From assembly GCA_018971305.1 (NCBI GenBank), contig JAGXBC010000005.1:1-48209 (forward strand): a DNA stretch of 48,209 nt, in the 5' to 3' direction. A program made the position numbers and the translations under genes. This stretch comes from Patescibacteria group bacterium (lineage in GTDB: Bacteria; Patescibacteriota; Minisyncoccia; UBA6257; 2-01-FULL-56-20). The notes below the pieces were generated by a model. That model did not search any database. It was given only the letters and a program-made list of their open reading frames with translations, and had not been told where the DNA came from. Of the stretch, positions 1 to 48,095 are shown one piece after another; position 1 is the stretch's first letter; each line of letters opens with the position of its first letter.

Positions 1-889
1 GTTTTAGCCTTGCGGCCGTACTTCCCAGGCGGCCTGCTTAACGCGTTAGCTCCGCCGCTCCGAGGGTCGATACTCGAAACAGCAAGCAGGCATCGTTTAG
101 GGCGTGGACTACAAGGGTATCTAATCCTTTTTGCTCCCCACGCTTTCGCATCTCAGAGTCAGGAAGGTCCCAGTGCCCTGCCTTCGCCTTTGGTGTTCCG
201 CACGATATCAACGGATTTCACCCCTACACCGTGCGTTCCAGGCACCTCTAACCTCCTCTAGTTTTGTCGTATCTCCTGCACTTCCACCGTTGGGCGGTGG
301 GCTTTAACAAAAGACGCACAAAACCTCCTACATGCTCTTTACGCCCAATAAATCCGGATAACGCTTGAGGTCTACGTATTACCGCTGGTGCTGGCACGTA
401 GTTACCCACCTCTTTCCGTATGGTACGATCATTTGCATTTTTCCCATACTACCGCAGTTTACAACCCGAAGGCCTTCATCCTGCACGCGGCGTCGCTCGA
501 TCAGGCTTTCGCCCATTGTCGAATGTTCTTGACTGCTGCCTCCCGTAGGAGTACGAGCCGTGTCTCAGTCTCGTCGTTGGGGGTCAGGCTCTCACCTCCC
601 CTACCCGTCGTAGCCTTGGTAGGCCGTTACCCTACCAACTAGCTGATGGGACCTAGGCCGCTCTAAGAGTGTCTTGCGACTTTGGATGCGAATGACTTTC
701 GTCCCCGCATCATCATCGGGAATTACCCCGCCTTTCGGCGAGCTGTGCCCGTCTCTAAGGTACGTTACCAAGGTGTTACTAACTCGTTCGCCGCTCATTA
801 TCTTCCTTGCGGAAAATAATGCGCTCGACTTGCATGCCTTATCCACGCCGCCAGCGTTCATCCTGGACCAGGATCAAATCCTCAGTTAA
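1..889 (-). rRNA. rrs: 16S ribosomal RNA, 5' ~890 nt (gene continues beyond window start)
   Basis: The reverse complement carries the universal 16S blocks. These are GGATTAGATACCC (plus 115-127), ACTCCTACGGGAGGCAGCAG (plus 533-552), the 515 region GTGCCAGCACCAGCGGTAA (plus 379-397) and the 5' end GATTTGATCCTGGTCCAGGATGAACGCTGGCGG (plus ~845-885). Spacing between the blocks matches a normal 16S. Confidence 0.95.
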
Positions 890-4123: not shown

Positions 4124-4840
4124 ATGGATAAAGTAATTTTAGAAATACGAGCGGGTACCGGTGGCGACGAGGCTGCAATCTTTGCCGGAGACCTCGCGAG
4201 AATGTATCAGCGTTATGCCGGCCGCAAGAGCTGGGGTTTTAGTATTTTGGATTATAATCAAACATCTTTAAGCGGTTATAAATCTTTTGTTGCCGAGATA
4301 AAAGGCGATGGAGTTTACAACGCCCTAAAGAACGAATCTGGCGTCCATAGGGTACAACGCGTTCCCAAAACTGAAAAATCCGGAAGAGTACACACATCAA
4401 CGGCTTCCGTTGCCGTTTTGCCGATAGTCGAGGCCAAAGAAGTGAATATCAAGCAAGGTGACCTCGAGGTTACCTTCTCCAGAGCGGGTGGTCCGGGCGG
4501 CCAGAACGTAAACAAAGTTGAAACTGCAGTACGCATTCTCCACAAACCTACCGGTATTGTTGTTTCCTGCCGTGAGGAGCGTTCGCAGAATGCTAATCGA
4601 GAAAAAGCTCTGGAAGTTCTGCGTGCCAAGCTTTACGAGATAGAGCAAACTAAAGCTACCGGTTCAGTGGGCGACATCCGCCGCGAACAGATTGGCTCCG
4701 CTGACCGCTCCGAGAAAATCAGAACTTATAATTTCCCAGAAGACAGGATAACCGACCACCGAATCGGAAAAAAATTCCATAATATAGAAAAAATTATGGA
4801 TGGAGATATGGAACCGATCGTGAAAGCTTTTTCCAAATAA
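4124..4840 (+). CDS. prfA: Peptide chain release factor 1 lacking N-terminal domain 1 (238 aa)
   Basis: The RF1 signature [26 protein letters not shown] is present. The codon-recognition tripeptide context is [15 protein letters not shown] (PxT type) and the GGQ motif is [14 protein letters not shown]. An in-frame stop at 4064-4066 precludes an N-terminal extension. Confidence 0.85.
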
Positions 4841-44098: not shown

Positions 44099-44169
44099 TG
44101 CCGGATCATCTAATGGTAGGATAATGGACTCTGAATCCATTCATCTTGGTTCGAATCCAAGTCCGGCAG
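44099..44169 (+). tRNA. tRNA-Gln (anticodon CTG), no encoded CCA
   Basis: I folded the cloverleaf by hand. The acceptor stem is TGCCGGA/TCCGGCA and the D arm is ATCT-AATGGTA-GGAT. The anticodon arm is ATGGA-CTCTGAA-TCCAT and the T arm is CTTGG-TTCGAAT-CCAAG. The discriminator base is G. Confidence 0.9.
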
Positions 44170-44286
44170 CTACGAGAGGCGCAGTATCGAGGGTGATGCG
44201 AGAGCATCAAATCCTCGCCGAACTGCACTCGTTATCTCCGCACCGTAAATAGCATAACTGCTGAGCGCAGCATTCAGAACAAAAAC

Positions 44287-44308
44287 CGCCGATTACTCGG
44301 CGATTTTT
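44287..44308. terminator. Bidirectional rho-independent terminator
   Basis: The hairpin CGCCGA-TTAC-TCGGCG is flanked by AAAAA and TTTTT. It lies downstream of both the tRNA and the 574-aa ORF. Confidence 0.6.
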
Positions 44309-44337
44309 GTTTTCGATAGTGTCCCTAAAATTGGTGG

Positions 44338-46062
44338 TTAAATATTGAATGCGAGATTTTCCGGGTTGACGCCGTATTCCTTCGCCCTCTTTTTTATCTC
44401 CTCGTTCACATATGGCATCAACGATTCCGACTTAATATTCGGAAGCACATCCGCCATAAACCGCTGTATCGCGCTTTCAAATATCCGTTTTCCACGATCG
44501 TCAAGTTTTGATTCATCGAAACCAGCTTGCTGGAATTGTGTCGCATATTGTTTGTCGGCAGCAGGAATCAAATCGCTAAATATCTCGCGCATCGTCCTTC
44601 CACCTCTTGGTTGTATATCGGGATTGCGGCTCAAAACATCCATCGCGGTACCTTGCCAAACATCACGAAGGAATTTCGCCCGCACCGCATTGAAAGAGGT
44701 ATTCTTATCGCCCGCACGGCTGAACTTTTGGTTTTGATATTCGGAAGGCTCCTCGGCTGCTCCCACGCCGCTAGCGGCTTCAGCGACGAGTGGCGGTAAC
44801 GGCCTGCCCTTGAGCCACTCCGGATTTTCATCTGAGATCTTTTGAAGCAATTCTGCTATTTTCGATCCGTTCTCTTTATCCGAGTAAAAAACCATTCTAT
44901 CCAAGCGCCGAGCATCGGACTTGGTTGGTTTCTGTAGCGAGAAATCGATCATCTTGAAGTAGTAGGGAACTTTCTCGCTCTGAGCGAGTTCGGCAAATTT
45001 CTTCGCGAGTTGCGGCAATATTTCCTTCGGCGGATTCAAATAAAGCCGAACTTCGATTTTTGCCGCCTCATAGGTATAACCATCCTTGCGGTGGCTATGA
45101 AAATGCAGAAACGGATTGTTGCGCATTCCCTCTTCGCCAAGGCCATCTTGATATGAAACTGCGGATATTTCGTTGAGGTCAGGATATTTTCTATAGAGAT
45201 CTCTCAACTCCTTGCTGCTTTTCGGTCTCGGTAAAGTTTCTATAAGATCGAATGTCTTTTTAAGTGCCGGACGCTTCGCCAAAACGCGCTCCTTGTTCGC
45301 ACTCATGTTTTCCCGCCATGATCCGTAAAAACCGAGCAGTAATTCCTCGTAATCCTTAGGGTCAGCATCTTTCTCTGCCTCCATCGCCTTGGCAGTCGGT
45401 GATTCAATATCGTCGGATAGTTCTCTCGACGTGAGAAATTGATAGAACTGATTTTCGCCAACAACAAACTGCGCTTTCTCTTTTTTTCGATATTCCTCAA
45501 ATGCGGTGAATGCTGACTGCATCGATTTCACGTCAGCGACACCGTACTCTCGCTTGAGGCGGTCAAAAAGATTTTCTGGTTTCTTTTCGGTTTCAATCCC
45601 AAGGTCTTTTTTAATCGCCTGCAATTTTTCTGTAGCCGCAGCATCTGATTGTTTTCTTTTCTCTTCCTGCTGTCGGGTTCGTGCTTCAGCAACCAATTTT
45701 TTACTCTCATCCTCACCCAACGTGCCAACCGCCCGATTGCGCAAGCGTTGCAGTTTTTCTTTGATCTGAAAACCTCCCCAATATTGATCAACGCCCTGCT
45801 TTTTATACCACTCACGCTGCGATGCCACGTACGCTTCAATGTTTCCTTTATACCCCTCGGCAAGATCGAAAAACTCAGGAGATTGTTTCATCTCTTCGGG
45901 AATATTGCTCCATAACGCCCCGATTTCTTCGGTGTCGGCGGCGATCATTTTTTCTACGGGCTCTCTTTGCGGAGCTTCAAACTCTTCGGAAGCTTTCCCT
46001 TTCATGGCATCCTCGTTTTCGACGCCCGCCATCTTTTGATTTTGAGGGTTTTCGAAGCTCAT
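44338..46062 (-). CDS. Hypothetical 574-aa protein (charged coiled-coil-like N-terminal half, globular C-terminal half)
   Basis: It is a long uninterrupted ORF with an ATG start. I recognise no family. Confidence 0.7.
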   Translation of the reverse strand: MSFENPQNQKMAGVENEDAMKGKASEEFEAPQREPVEKMIAADTEEIGALWSNIPEEMKQSPEFFDLAEGYKGNIEAYVASQREWYKKQGVDQYWGGFQIKEKLQRLRNRAVGTLGEDESKKLVAEARTRQQEEKRKQSDAAATEKLQAIKKDLGIETEKKPENLFDRLKREYGVADVKSMQSAFTAFEEYRKKEKAQFVVGENQFYQFLTSRELSDDIESPTAKAMEAEKDADPKDYEELLLGFYGSWRENMSANKERVLAKRPALKKTFDLIETLPRPKSSKELRDLYRKYPDLNEISAVSYQDGLGEEGMRNNPFLHFHSHRKDGYTYEAAKIEVRLYLNPPKEILPQLAKKFAELAQSEKVPYYFKMIDFSLQKPTKSDARRLDRMVFYSDKENGSKIAELLQKISDENPEWLKGRPLPPLVAEAASGVGAAEEPSEYQNQKFSRAGDKNTSFNAVRAKFLRDVWQGTAMDVLSRNPDIQPRGGRTMREIFSDLIPAADKQYATQFQQAGFDESKLDDRGKRIFESAIQRFMADVLPNIKSESLMPYVNEEIKKRAKEYGVNPENLAFNI

Positions 46063-46106
46063 ATTATTGAAATCATTTTATCAATTTTGAGACATTTAGT
46101 AAAGCT

Positions 46107-47444
46107 CTACCGGACAATTTTTATAACCTTATTTGCGATTACAAGTTTGTCCTTCAACATCCCCAGTAACTCGCGCTTCTCCGTCGGTGTCCCTTCGTTG
46201 AGGACATACGTTGCGTAACTTCTCGCATTAAATTCAATTTCTTGCTGCACCGCTTTTTTCTGCCCGAGGAAAACTTTAGTGAATTTGCCGATCCGATGCA
46301 TTTCTTCGTCGAACCGTTTTCTGATATCGGTCTCGTTGATATCCATCTGACCAATAATTTCGATGAGTTGTTTGATCAGTTCTTCCTCGCGCAGATACTG
46401 ATTTTTGCAATGGAGGTTTTTTGAGCGACTGCACCCGTAGTAAACGTAGCGCACGGTCTGTCCGGTAGTTTTCAGTGTTTTGAATTTTTCCTCGGCGGTG
46501 ATGCCGGAACCGCAGAGGCCGCACGTCATCAATTTCGTGAAGGCGAATTCCTTACTCTCACCGCGGACGATTTTGTCGCGCTTGATCCATTCCTGCGCTT
46601 TTTCATAAACCTCTCGTGTGATAAGCGGCTGGTGTTTTCCCGTGTACCAGTTCCCGCTTCCGGCGGGATATTCATATACGCCGTAATAAAATGTCGTTTC
46701 AAGTAACCGATAAATATTCCCAAGCGTGAGCGGCTTGTTACTCGTTACGCTCCGGAAATTCATGTCGAACTTGAGCCAGTGATAAAGTTTACGGCCAGAC
46801 CAATGTTCGTAGGCGACTTTTTCAAACATCTGCTTTACGATGGGCGCACGCTCAGGGTCGACAAGCACGTGGCCCTTTCTATCCATACGTTTCTCGTTCA
46901 GATATCCGGTCGGCGCAGGTGCGGGCCAGAGGCCCATCTCGCAGCGCATCCGAAGGCCGCGCTTCACGTTCACGCTTTTCTGGTCGTTTTCCAGTTTCCC
47001 TTGAGCGCCAAGAATCATAAGCAAGAACTTCTCGCTTGGCGAATTTGTAAATCGTTGGCCGAAGGTTCGTACCTCGATCAATAATTTCTGATCCATGAGA
47101 TCAACGAGCGACCCTAAGTCCCCCGCGTTGCGACTCAACCTGTCCGGTGCCCAAGTAAGTATTCCCGTATATCTGCCACTGCGGAGGTCCTTAATAATTT
47201 CATTGAAGACGGGCCGCTGGCCGGAATCCTTCGCGGAGTGTGACTCGCGCCGGATGTCGACAATCTCCAGCCCGTCGCGCTCGGCGATCTGCAGCATCTC
47301 CTTCACTTGGCTGTCTATGCTCAAGGCTTGCTTCTCGTCCTGCTCGGTGCTTTTCCTTGCATACAGCACGTATTTGACCTTTATCTCTGCCGGGATTGCT
47401 GCGGGGGCTCCCGGTCCCTTGGCCCCCATGGTTTGGATAGTCAT
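46107..47444 (-). CDS. Large serine recombinase (resolvase catalytic domain + recombinase domain + zinc ribbon)
   Basis: The catalytic region is YVLYARKSTEQDEKQALSIDSQ. The DRLSRN motif and the zinc ribbon CGLCGS...YYGCSRSKNLHC are present. The start is uncertain: the ATG at 47444 or 47429 is preferred over the TTG at 47534. Confidence 0.88.
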   Translation of the reverse strand: MTIQTMGAKGPGAPAAIPAEIKVKYVLYARKSTEQDEKQALSIDSQVKEMLQIAERDGLEIVDIRRESHSAKDSGQRPVFNEIIKDLRSGRYTGILTWAPDRLSRNAGDLGSLVDLMDQKLLIEVRTFGQRFTNSPSEKFLLMILGAQGKLENDQKSVNVKRGLRMRCEMGLWPAPAPTGYLNEKRMDRKGHVLVDPERAPIVKQMFEKVAYEHWSGRKLYHWLKFDMNFRSVTSNKPLTLGNIYRLLETTFYYGVYEYPAGSGNWYTGKHQPLITREVYEKAQEWIKRDKIVRGESKEFAFTKLMTCGLCGSGITAEEKFKTLKTTGQTVRYVYYGCSRSKNLHCKNQYLREEELIKQLIEIIGQMDINETDIRKRFDEEMHRIGKFTKVFLGQKKAVQQEIEFNARSYATYVLNEGTPTEKRELLGMLKDKLVIANKVIKIVR

Positions 47445-47513
47445 ACCCAAAGGGAGCCGCCGATCCCCGAGGAAGTCCAGACCCTCGCTACAAGGCCACG
47501 AAGCTCCCGATAA

Positions 47514-48057
47514 GGCAAATGAGACACGGCGCAATACCCCTTAAAAGTGTCTCATTTATCTCATTTGCCCAAAAACCCCTTATTTTATAGGCATCGATTT
47601 TTCCAAATGAGACACCGATCTGTCCCACCGAGACACTCGTTTTTGTGTCTCAAGTTTTCCATTTCGGACACGTCCGAAATGGCCTTCCAGTGTCCGATTT
47701 ATCCGAAATGGCCCTCGTGGAACACCCGAAATGGAACACGAAAACACGCCCCATTGAGTCCCATTTGTTCTATTTGGCACGGCGGAATGGCGCACGAAAA
47801 AGTGCCTATGCCGTGTGCCATTTGTGCCATTTTCCCTCAAAATGTTACACGTCAAAGCTGTGTAACATTTGTAACATTTTGGAGCGTTGCATTAGAGATG
47901 TTGCATTTCGGATCCCCTAAAAATCCTTATTTTTCAAGCCCTAGTCAGTTACCCCGTCCCGAAAGCGTCGTTTCCCAAATGTTACACATCGCGCTGCATT
48001 TGTTGCATGTTGCATTTTGGACAGCGTCCGAAATCCCCTTTTTATAGTGTCTAAAAT
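47514..48057. repeat. Dense array of related inverted and tandem short-repeat modules sharing the scaffold AAAT[G/C]-NNN-CAC
   Basis: At least six modules have distinct cores. Examples are AAATGAGACAC/GTGTCTCATTT, the 24-bp perfect palindrome CCATTTCGGACACGTCCGAAATGG (47659-47682), GTGTGCCATTTGTGCCATTTT (47813-47833) and AAATGTTACAC-9 nt-GTGTAACATTTGTAACATTTT (47840-47880). The findings section lists all of them. Confidence 0.8.
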
Positions 48058-48095
48058 GTCGGGTAATGTAAGTCAGATGGTACAGCTTCGCTATC

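Follow-up and report, generated by a model that had tools for sequence, protein, structure and literature searches.

The window analyzed here is a 48,209-nucleotide stretch of a Patescibacteria contig, and its right-hand end holds an array of short repeated words between a large serine recombinase gene and an IS1595-like element. An earlier note, made from the letters alone, had described this region as a series of paralogous modules, each with its own core set in a frame common to all, and this description was borne out both by the anatomy of the array and by the recurrence of the modules in other genomes. The array is real, non-coding, conserved and undescribed.

Anatomy and non-coding status of the array

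The array occupies 47514-48040 of the window and is built from words of 9-11 nt. The words share the frame AAATG-NNN-CAC / GTG-NNN-CATTT with a variable 3-nt core, and are arranged as hairpin-like modules (-> <- <-, often 2+2) in the order A-B-C-D-E-F-E'F'-B'. The direct-repeat families D1, D4 and D7 have units of ~47-57 bp, and the inverted-repeat pairs include perfect arms of 11-13 bp. The parts are as follows.

47517-47566, + strand: module A, first hairpin, with the 5' word AAATGAGACAC (47517-47527), a 19-nt loop ending in CCCCTTAAAA, the 3' word GTGTCTCATTT (47547-47557) and its tandem copy ATCTCATTT (47558-47566); 20-mer found in at least 120 genome loci and aligned across 8 arrays
47568-47596, + strand: conserved box CCCAAAAACCCCTTATTTTATAGGCATCG; near-invariant columns in the 8-array alignment, D6 repeat family
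47605-47651, + strand: A' block, with AAATGAGACAC (47605-47615), GTCCCAC, GAGACAC (47630-47636), an 8-nt loop and GTGTCTC (47645-47651); inverted repeat I12
47659-47711, + strand: module B, with the palindrome CCATTTCGGAC-AC-GTCCGAAATGG (47659-47682) followed by GTGTCCGATTTATCCGAAATGG (47690-47711); I13, I2
47717-47775, + strand: module C (2+2), with GTGGAACAC, AAATGGAACAC ... GAGTCCCATTT, GTTCTATTT; D1, D7
47775-47833, + strand: module D (2+2), with TGGCAC-n5-AATGGCGCAC, a 17-nt loop and GTGTGCCATTT-GTGCCATTTT; D4, D7, helix columns 494-504/522-532
47838-47880, + strand: module E, with CAAAATGTTACAC, a 9-nt loop and GTGTAACATTT-GTAACATTTT; I10, I14
47886-47908, + strand: module F words, GTTGCATT ... 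GTTGCATTT; D9, 8-array alignment
47915-47940, + strand: second conserved box, CCCTAAAAATCCTTATTTTTCAAGCC; D6, 8-array alignment
47977-48018, + strand: E'/F' block, with AAATGTTACAC (partner of the second E word) and CTGCATTTGTTGCATGTTGCATTTT; I8, helix columns 610-616/767-773
48014-48040, + strand: terminal B'-type palindrome ATTTTGGACAGCGTCCGAAAT, truncated, where relatives run on with GGAGTGTCCGATTTGTCCGATTT; alignment to L116, L161 and L221
48041-48209, + strand (open reading frame from 48096): start of the apparently inserted IS1595-like element, not part of the array; Zn_ribbon_IS1595 match

Every word that the earlier note had listed was present where the note had placed it. Its rule of one inverted copy plus two tandem copies held for some modules, but many others are 2+2, including D, C and the G/C module of L253. 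Module D, for example, reads TGGCAC (47775-47780)-n5-AATGGCGCAC ... GTGTGCCATTT-GTGCCA. When the upstream second word is missing, the second 3' word complements the next downstream 5' word (-> <- <- ->). RNAalifold drew modules A and E in this form in all eight aligned arrays, and in all eight the 5' word of A' pairs with the second 3' word of module A. The box CCCAAAAACCCCTTATTTTATAGGCATCG is similar in type to AAAAAGCCTTAYAAT, the promoter box that the downstream unit carries at other loci. A C/G module homologous to module C of the window was found in L274, L298 and L253, and CTGCATTTGTTGCATGTTGCATTTT in the E'/F' block is the most conserved array-specific word.

When motif counts were compared with those in dinucleotide shuffles, both motifs were far above expectation and, apart from one match, confined to the array region. 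With up to 3 mismatches allowed, GTGTNNCATTTGTNNCATTT gave 7 matches in the 48-kb window against 0.64 expected; none of 100 shuffles reached 7, and 6 of the 7 matches lay inside the array, at 47547-48010. The exact motif AAATGNNNCAC was found 8 times against 1.49 expected, each time within 47517-47987. In a check for dispersal of the kind expected from insertion sequence or miniature inverted-repeat transposable element ends, the array words occurred only in the array within the window.

The possibility that the region encodes a protein, or that the repeats arise by chance, draws on the long open reading frames present in the window and in L218. The 166-aa frame at 47547-48047, however, had no Pfam match and was not preserved in L116, L161, L115 or L221. 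The longest frames in the arrays of relatives are 82-101 aa and lie in other frames or on the opposite strand, and single-base indels separate the window array from its closest relatives in the 8-sequence alignment. Since the frame is not preserved and is broken by indels between relatives, the conserved protein that the earlier note had named as a ground for abandoning its claim does not refute it. With the motif counts also far exceeding those in the shuffles, we consider the probability of a coding gene or of chance repeats to be practically negligible.

The end at 48057 given in the earlier note is not the natural end of the array, since the terminal B-type module is cut at ~48036-48042 relative to the homologous arrays. 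Divergence of the window from all relatives starts at ~48040, where the IS1595-like element begins. The open reading frame from 48096 matches Zn_ribbon_IS1595 with an E value of 0.0012, which is below the Pfam cut-off because only 38 aa of the frame lie inside the window. Judged from the alignment, the IS1595-like element apparently interrupts the window array rather than supplying it. Since the array is truncated in this way, the small-RNA unit that follows other arrays (described below) is not visible in the window. An exact-protein look-up intended to extend the window beyond its ends returned only 2-kb contigs.

Conservation, shuffling and the linked small-RNA unit

Homologous arrays were found in 14 further Patescibacteria genomes or contigs (L218, L254, L253, L116, L161, L221, L115, L274, L298, L282, L297, L276, L287 and L294). 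The F' word CTGCATTTGTTGCATGTTGCATTTT served as a search pattern, and 7 of its 37 matches in metagenomes were true arrays; the matches to a B-palindrome pattern were mostly unrelated terminators. In the 8-sequence alignment, the variation falls in loops and spacers, and the words and both AAAAGCCTTATTTT boxes are almost unchanged. The cores recur as a small set (GAGAC, GTTAC, GGCAC, GGGAC, GGAAC, CGGAC and TTGC, more rarely CAGAC, GCGAC and GTGAC), and identical discrete cores are found in distant genomes with no free drift. For the arrays in L116, L161, L218 and L254, the chromosomal context is ordinary.

The order of the modules differs among the arrays. It is A-B-C-E-D-F in L274 and L298 (81.5% identical to the window over the recombinase gene), A-B-D-E-F in L218 and L254, and A-G-D-E-F...B in L116, L161, L221, L294 and L276. 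Module B lies in the middle of the array in L218, L254 and L274; L116, L161, L221, L276 and L294 have it at the end. The tandem 9-nt unit GTCTCATTT is present three times in L274 (~4800-4830) and twice in the near-identical L298. These two arrays also differ by a 9-nt duplication in the A loop, and the length differences between them indicate what is probably slippage-type variation within modules. The differing order and the differing numbers of 9-nt units show that each module behaves as a cassette of its own, subject to shuffling and with tandem units prone to slippage.

Module A extends well beyond the arrays. Its 20-mer, GTGTCTCATTTRTCTCATTT, was found exactly in at least 120 stretches of species-representative genomes. 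The carriers have mostly candidate-phylum (CPR) or generic "bacterium" names, with a few Dehalococcoidia or Terriglobia; many others bear names such as "uncultured Gammaproteobacteria" that look mislabelled. Since the flanks of GTGTCTCATTTRTCTCATTT are too diverged to align, the 20-mer itself must be under strong constraint. The 5' word AAATGAGACAC, with up to 2 mismatches, is present in about half of the A loci, mostly 18-20 nt upstream. A T-rich TATA commonly closes the A loop, immediately ahead of GTGTCTC, and the 5' word contains a -35-like hexamer, GAGACA, ~17 nt from TATAGT/TAGTGT. Module A therefore looks like a putative operator laid over a promoter.

While the genes to the left of module A vary, its right-hand side is nearly always occupied by one conserved unit, of which we counted at least 44 distinct instances. 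The unit consists of a spacer of ~10 nt, the box CCCCGACC(C/G)AG...CCTCAAA, a sigma-70-like promoter (TGGAAA/TTGACA-17-TAYAAT), a small hairpin and an intrinsic terminator. In all these instances the hairpin has a 5-bp stem and a 7-nt loop (TTCYAGA, TACTTAA or CACTGAA), followed by exactly 7 nt, a G and CCA. The predicted layout follows that of a tRNA from the T-arm through the acceptor 3' strand and discriminator to CCA, except that the T-loop is non-canonical. An Rfam scan of the unit returned no family even at a relaxed threshold, a comparison with tRNA 3' ends returned no match, and a small RNA with this tRNA-3'-half layout appears to be undescribed. Examples of the unit are found in L132, L153, L174, L190, L167 and L236, and after the arrays in L218, L254 and L274. 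The GACC box on the upstream side of the unit looks like a second copy of the unit's 3' part.

The long arrays in L218, L254, L253 and L274 end in the same small-RNA unit, and the polarity of the modules relative to the unit is constant.

At about 11 loci, the gene abutting module A on its left, in either orientation, encodes a protein of 150-230 aa with a CxxC...CxxC zinc ribbon and a weak, excisionase-like HTH_17 match. These neighbors, including those in L087, L104, L110, L132, L139, L147, L171 and L172, are candidate readers of the words. Outside Patescibacteria, two Dehalococcoidia genomes carry a multi-copy element of ~500 bp that contains an A module (L108, L112 and L114 in CBDFIZ01; L128 and L129 in OZ253586.1). 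This dispersed repeat has GTATCTG/CCAGATAC repeats and lies upstream of paralogous genes beginning with MRTNKTKAKLQQGEMVF.

Independence from the adjacent recombinase, and comparison with known systems

The array in the window is preceded by a recombinase island next to a tRNA gene.

44099-44170: tRNA-Gln(ctg)
44171-47500, - strand: island of ~3.3 kb between tRNA-Gln(ctg) and the array; same layout in L274 and L298
44338-46062, - strand: HopA1-like gene of 574 aa; HopA1 domain match
46107-47444, - strand: large serine recombinase gene; Resolvase, Recombinase and Zn_ribbon_recom domains

The closest relatives of the window genes are all CPR metagenome-assembled genomes. At the other end of the window, positions 1-889 (- strand) hold the 5' ~900 nt of a 16S rRNA gene, and the canonical promoter TTGACA-17-TACAAT upstream of it (1330-1400) indicates that the organism uses standard sigma-70 promoters.

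The earlier note had considered the modules as sites for the adjacent recombinase, with the module B palindrome as a crossover site. In favor of modules acting as att, res-like or shufflon sites of this or another site-specific recombinase, the recombinase start lies ~100 nt from module A in divergent orientation, and a homologue is found to the left of module A on the same relative (minus) strand, 150-6500 nt away, at 16 of the 118 A loci. The order of the modules differs among relatives, with D and E swapped in L274 and L298, and in L182 one GTTGGTAAC word stands right next to an A module. Against it stand the homologues of the recombinase itself, of which 80 loci at 54-72% identity (L001-L080) were scanned three ways. 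Modules were present within ~4 kb at only 2 of the 80 loci (L056 and L078), in neither case directly upstream of the gene. The homologues instead share an element of ~70 nt just upstream of their start (..TTGATGACGCAA..GGAGTCCAGAGCGTCC), which at 17 of the 80 loci is followed by the near-palindromic tandem GTTGGCAAC-nT-GTTGGCAAC, in the form GTTGGCAAC-GT-GTTGGCAAC, flanked by inverted repeats of 6-11 bp. This tandem is likely the att site of the recombinase family. The element and tandem lie ~40-130 nt upstream of the recombinase start (for example, L010:3907-3925 and L001:3912-3930), a position that corresponds to 47445-47500 in the window. There, a degenerate copy of the upstream element, GAAGTCCAGACCCTCGC, is present at ~47474-47490 without the tandem word pair. 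By analogy with the homologues, the island edge would be at ~47500, so that the array lies outside the island.

Module B is a perfect 24-bp palindrome with a non-palindromic central dinucleotide and an adjoining recombinase gene, as in the att sites of large serine recombinases. Its center, however, is AC, AT, AGGT or an 18-nt loop among relatives, so that the palindrome is not a conserved crossover site. Most arrays have no recombinase nearby, the homologues that carry the other site lack the array, and no A half-site was found at the other end of the island.

The association between recombinase and array is explained by tRNA-Gln. When a tRNA lies to the left of module A, it is always on the + strand and is often tRNA-Gln, although tRNAs were not consistently adjacent to the modules. 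tRNA-Gln(ctg) also lies 2-4 kb beyond the recombinase gene at several homologue loci, including L004, L020, L025 and L031. L274 and L298 repeat the window layout of tRNA-Gln, cargo, recombinase and array, and in L120 the A unit follows tRNA-Gln after 552 nt with no island between. Since both are linked to tRNA-Gln, the association of recombinase and array is positional, not functional. The simplest reading would be that the ~3.3-kb recombinase island was inserted between tRNA-Gln and a pre-existing array, and we consider a role of the modules as recombination sites to be very unlikely. The interpretation in the earlier note is thus supported for non-coding, paralogous modules without a known match, and its reading as binding sites of diversified specificity is the one that we favor, but its link to the recombinase is not supported.

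Two further observations concern the island. The sequence CAGTATCGAGG..GATGCGAGAGCATC is conserved after the tRNA in the window and in L274. The sites ATAGTGTC(CC)TAAAAT at 44316-44331 and 48044-48059 were rejected as direct repeats of the island because the match is too weak and short; one lies immediately beyond the 3' end of the HopA1-like gene and the other at the interruption of the array, and they could be a remnant of an IS1595-type inverted repeat or a chance match.

Another possibility is that mobile elements use the words as cis sites, be it as iterons for replication, as pac/cos sites for the small terminase or as centromere half-sites of the ParB type. On this view, the array on the chromosome would be a remnant or composite, or else a bank by which several elements are titrated or exploited. 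The A and E words do occur in IMG/VR viral contigs, several of them near contig ends, and E words adjoin genes that were judged by eye to be terS-like. In the viral contig L251, an E word pair replaces module A in front of the same small-RNA unit. The left neighbors of A modules at the 118 loci include, besides the 16 serine recombinases, 9 ParB_N-methylases and 5 terS-like helix-turn-helix (HTH) proteins. However, these neighbors vary, and no Rep, ParB-HTH or terminase gene is consistently adjacent. The ordinary chromosomal contexts noted above also speak against mobile-element sites, and in the window no canonical parS was found and the half-sites are split by variable spacers. In L236 (IMGVR_UViG_3300020195_001307), a unit of 9117 bp recurs head to tail, and the 500 bp surrounding the two A units are 100% identical, which indicates a circular element or a tandem duplication. 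Its genes include terL- and terS-like genes and two methylases (one a ParB_N fusion); this apparent 9.1-kb repeat or circle also holds housekeeping-type genes (ribonucleotide reductase, PfkB kinase and a NUDIX protein), a point against the mobile-element reading. We regard mobile-element cis sites as quite an unlikely explanation.

The array nevertheless resembles several such systems. Begomovirus Rep iterons and lambda cosB (R3-I1-R2-R1) appear to share with it the arrangement of an inverted copy and two tandem copies about a TATA box. Iteron and operator arrays such as P1 oriR/incA and begomovirus Rep sites also have tandem and inverted words near a promoter-like TATA, lineage-specific cores within a family-wide frame and a variable copy number of units. 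The array differs from them in that several word types stand side by side as shuffled cassettes, on a chromosome and upstream of a small-RNA gene, with no adjacent initiator gene or evident nick-site stem-loop; Rep families were absent from the recurrent neighbors of A modules.

With ParB centromeres (parS TGTTTCAC|GTGAAACA, F sopC TGGGACC..GGTCCCA and P1 boxA ATTTCAC), the words have in common the frame TG-NNN-CAC/GTG-NNN-CA, and both are arrays of sites. This frame appears to match parS (TGTTTCAC/GTGAAACA), and the core TGGGAC to match F sopC; only one or two positions separate the E and G words from the half-sites of parS and sopC. In contrast to ParB centromeres, the half-sites of the array are 2-20 nt apart with free sequence between them and are tandemly duplicated, and no HTH-bearing ParB gene is adjacent. 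The neighboring ParB_N proteins are methylase fusions.

Integron attC sites, REP/BIME and CIRCE are like the array in having 45-60-bp units, two boxed stems, an unpaired spacer, a variable loop and co-varying arms; module E, an 11-bp inverted repeat with a 9-nt spacer, is CIRCE-like. However, the array has no IntI, RAYT or HrcA context, its cores form a small conserved set, and tandem word copies are foreign to those elements. As for attC, no gene cassettes lie between the modules, no tyrosine integrase was found among the recurrent neighbors, and the frame is AAATG/CATTT, not AAC/GTT.

An Rfam cmscan of the whole window and 45 loci returned only tRNA, 16S rRNA and two unlinked LOOT RNA matches (RF03000; L130:7500-7621, - strand, and L251:4386-4511, + strand). 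The latter lie 7-8 kb from the modules and are possibly coincidental. A literature search by word strings and keywords gave no description of the element. The statement in the earlier note that no described element has this organization therefore agrees with Rfam, the Pfam context and the searchable literature. The array works like known repeat-word control regions, yet it does not match a serine-recombinase att site, attC, parS, an iteron origin or a coding gene.

Words on duplex DNA or a structured RNA

We tentatively read the array as a cis-acting, DNA-level bank of short sequence-specific recognition words that would lie on the upstream side of a small-RNA transcription unit conserved in Patescibacteria, with protein binding proposed from the sequence patterns. 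Each module would present one word type three or four times, inverted and in tandem, and would act as an autonomous cassette, open to reordering, loss and expansion in steps of 9 nt. Proteins may recognize the words on duplex DNA, the most plausible candidates being small HTH proteins encoded by the host or by mobile elements, and their binding might control promoters in and next to the array. A reading of the variable triplets as codons or anticodons was dropped, as it had no supporting pattern.

Sequence recognition is favored by the discrete core repertoire, the shared frame, the free loops, the lack of a wobble excess and the words that occur without hairpins. The exact 20-mer between diverged flanks, the different tandem unit numbers in L274 and L298, the operator-like layout of module A, the constant small-RNA unit on its right and the zinc-ribbon genes beside it count in the same direction. 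Among 121 independent A modules, substitutions in the 5' word showed no excess of changes compatible with + strand wobble pairing. At the core positions, 7 wobble-compatible changes over 4 sites compare with 18 A.C-type changes over 3 sites, so that the latter are if anything commoner per site. Isolated stem mismatches in the 8 arrays are mostly transversions (21 other, 3 G.T and 0 A.C). Loops are free in length (7-20 nt and more) and in sequence. In phage intergenic regions, E words occur as purely direct triplets and in mixed-orientation clusters, with no hairpin.

On the other hand, the array may be transcribed rightwards from module A and the AAAAGCCTTATTTT boxes as a multi-hairpin noncoding RNA or as the 5' leader of the small RNA. 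The extra 3' word would then be an alternative pairing partner (attenuator or decoy) or the partner of the next 5' word. Every module is oriented like the small RNA that follows downstream, the 3' words end in a U-run, and the G.U pairs in modules C and D of the window fit the + strand. Both strands of the array fold better than shuffled sequences (z ~ -5.3); the z-scores are, however, equal on the two strands, which does not favor an RNA.

Several of the observations that support the RNA also weigh against protein-binding words. RNAalifold found 66 consensus pairs in the 8 arrays, 7 of them with compensatory changes, and in the core helices ~30 G.U cells compare with 6 A.C cells, although the 8 aligned arrays are closely related, so that these cell counts overstate the independent events. 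The arms of a module change together: module E reads GTGACA/TGTCAC in L221 and AAAGTTAAC/GTTAACTTT in L115, and compensatory changes in this module fall in columns 577/604 and 578/603 (L221, L253 and L115). Co-varying arms and the G.U excess fit a + strand RNA or an extruded hairpin. In addition, the spacing from arm to arm does not follow the helical repeat, none of the candidate binder HTH families from other loci is encoded in the 48-kb window, and 6-8 specificities in one genome of ~1 Mb would be costly. A scan for canonical sigma-70 promoters found none in the window's array, a result that speaks against the protein-binding words and the transcribed RNA alike.

For the RNA, the lack of a wobble excess in the A modules, the transversions in the stems and the absence of an Rfam match are also unfavorable, and a small conserved set of cores is not required by a purely structural constraint. 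We consider a structured RNA possible but somewhat unlikely. The DNA-level bank of protein-binding words remains the reading that we tentatively adopt.

A more specific reading, which we regard as unlikely, is that the locus is a shuffled multi-specificity site bank beside a tRNA-3'-half-like small-RNA gene, where one family of DNA- or RNA-binding proteins would supply a separate reader for each module. Such readers might be regulators, packaging proteins or initiators that belong to different mobile elements, and the locus would serve as a control, docking or decoy site. Such an organization is without a described counterpart.

Since Patescibacteria genomes are tiny and contain little non-coding DNA, a conserved block of ~550 bp and a 20-mer present in at least 120 genomes must do something. 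If the words bind proteins, their swapped cores would offer a natural series for the diversification of specificity within one DNA-binding fold, and might also lead to an unknown network of regulatory or mobile-element interactions in this uncultured phylum. If the array acts as RNA, it would represent a new class of multi-hairpin RNA.

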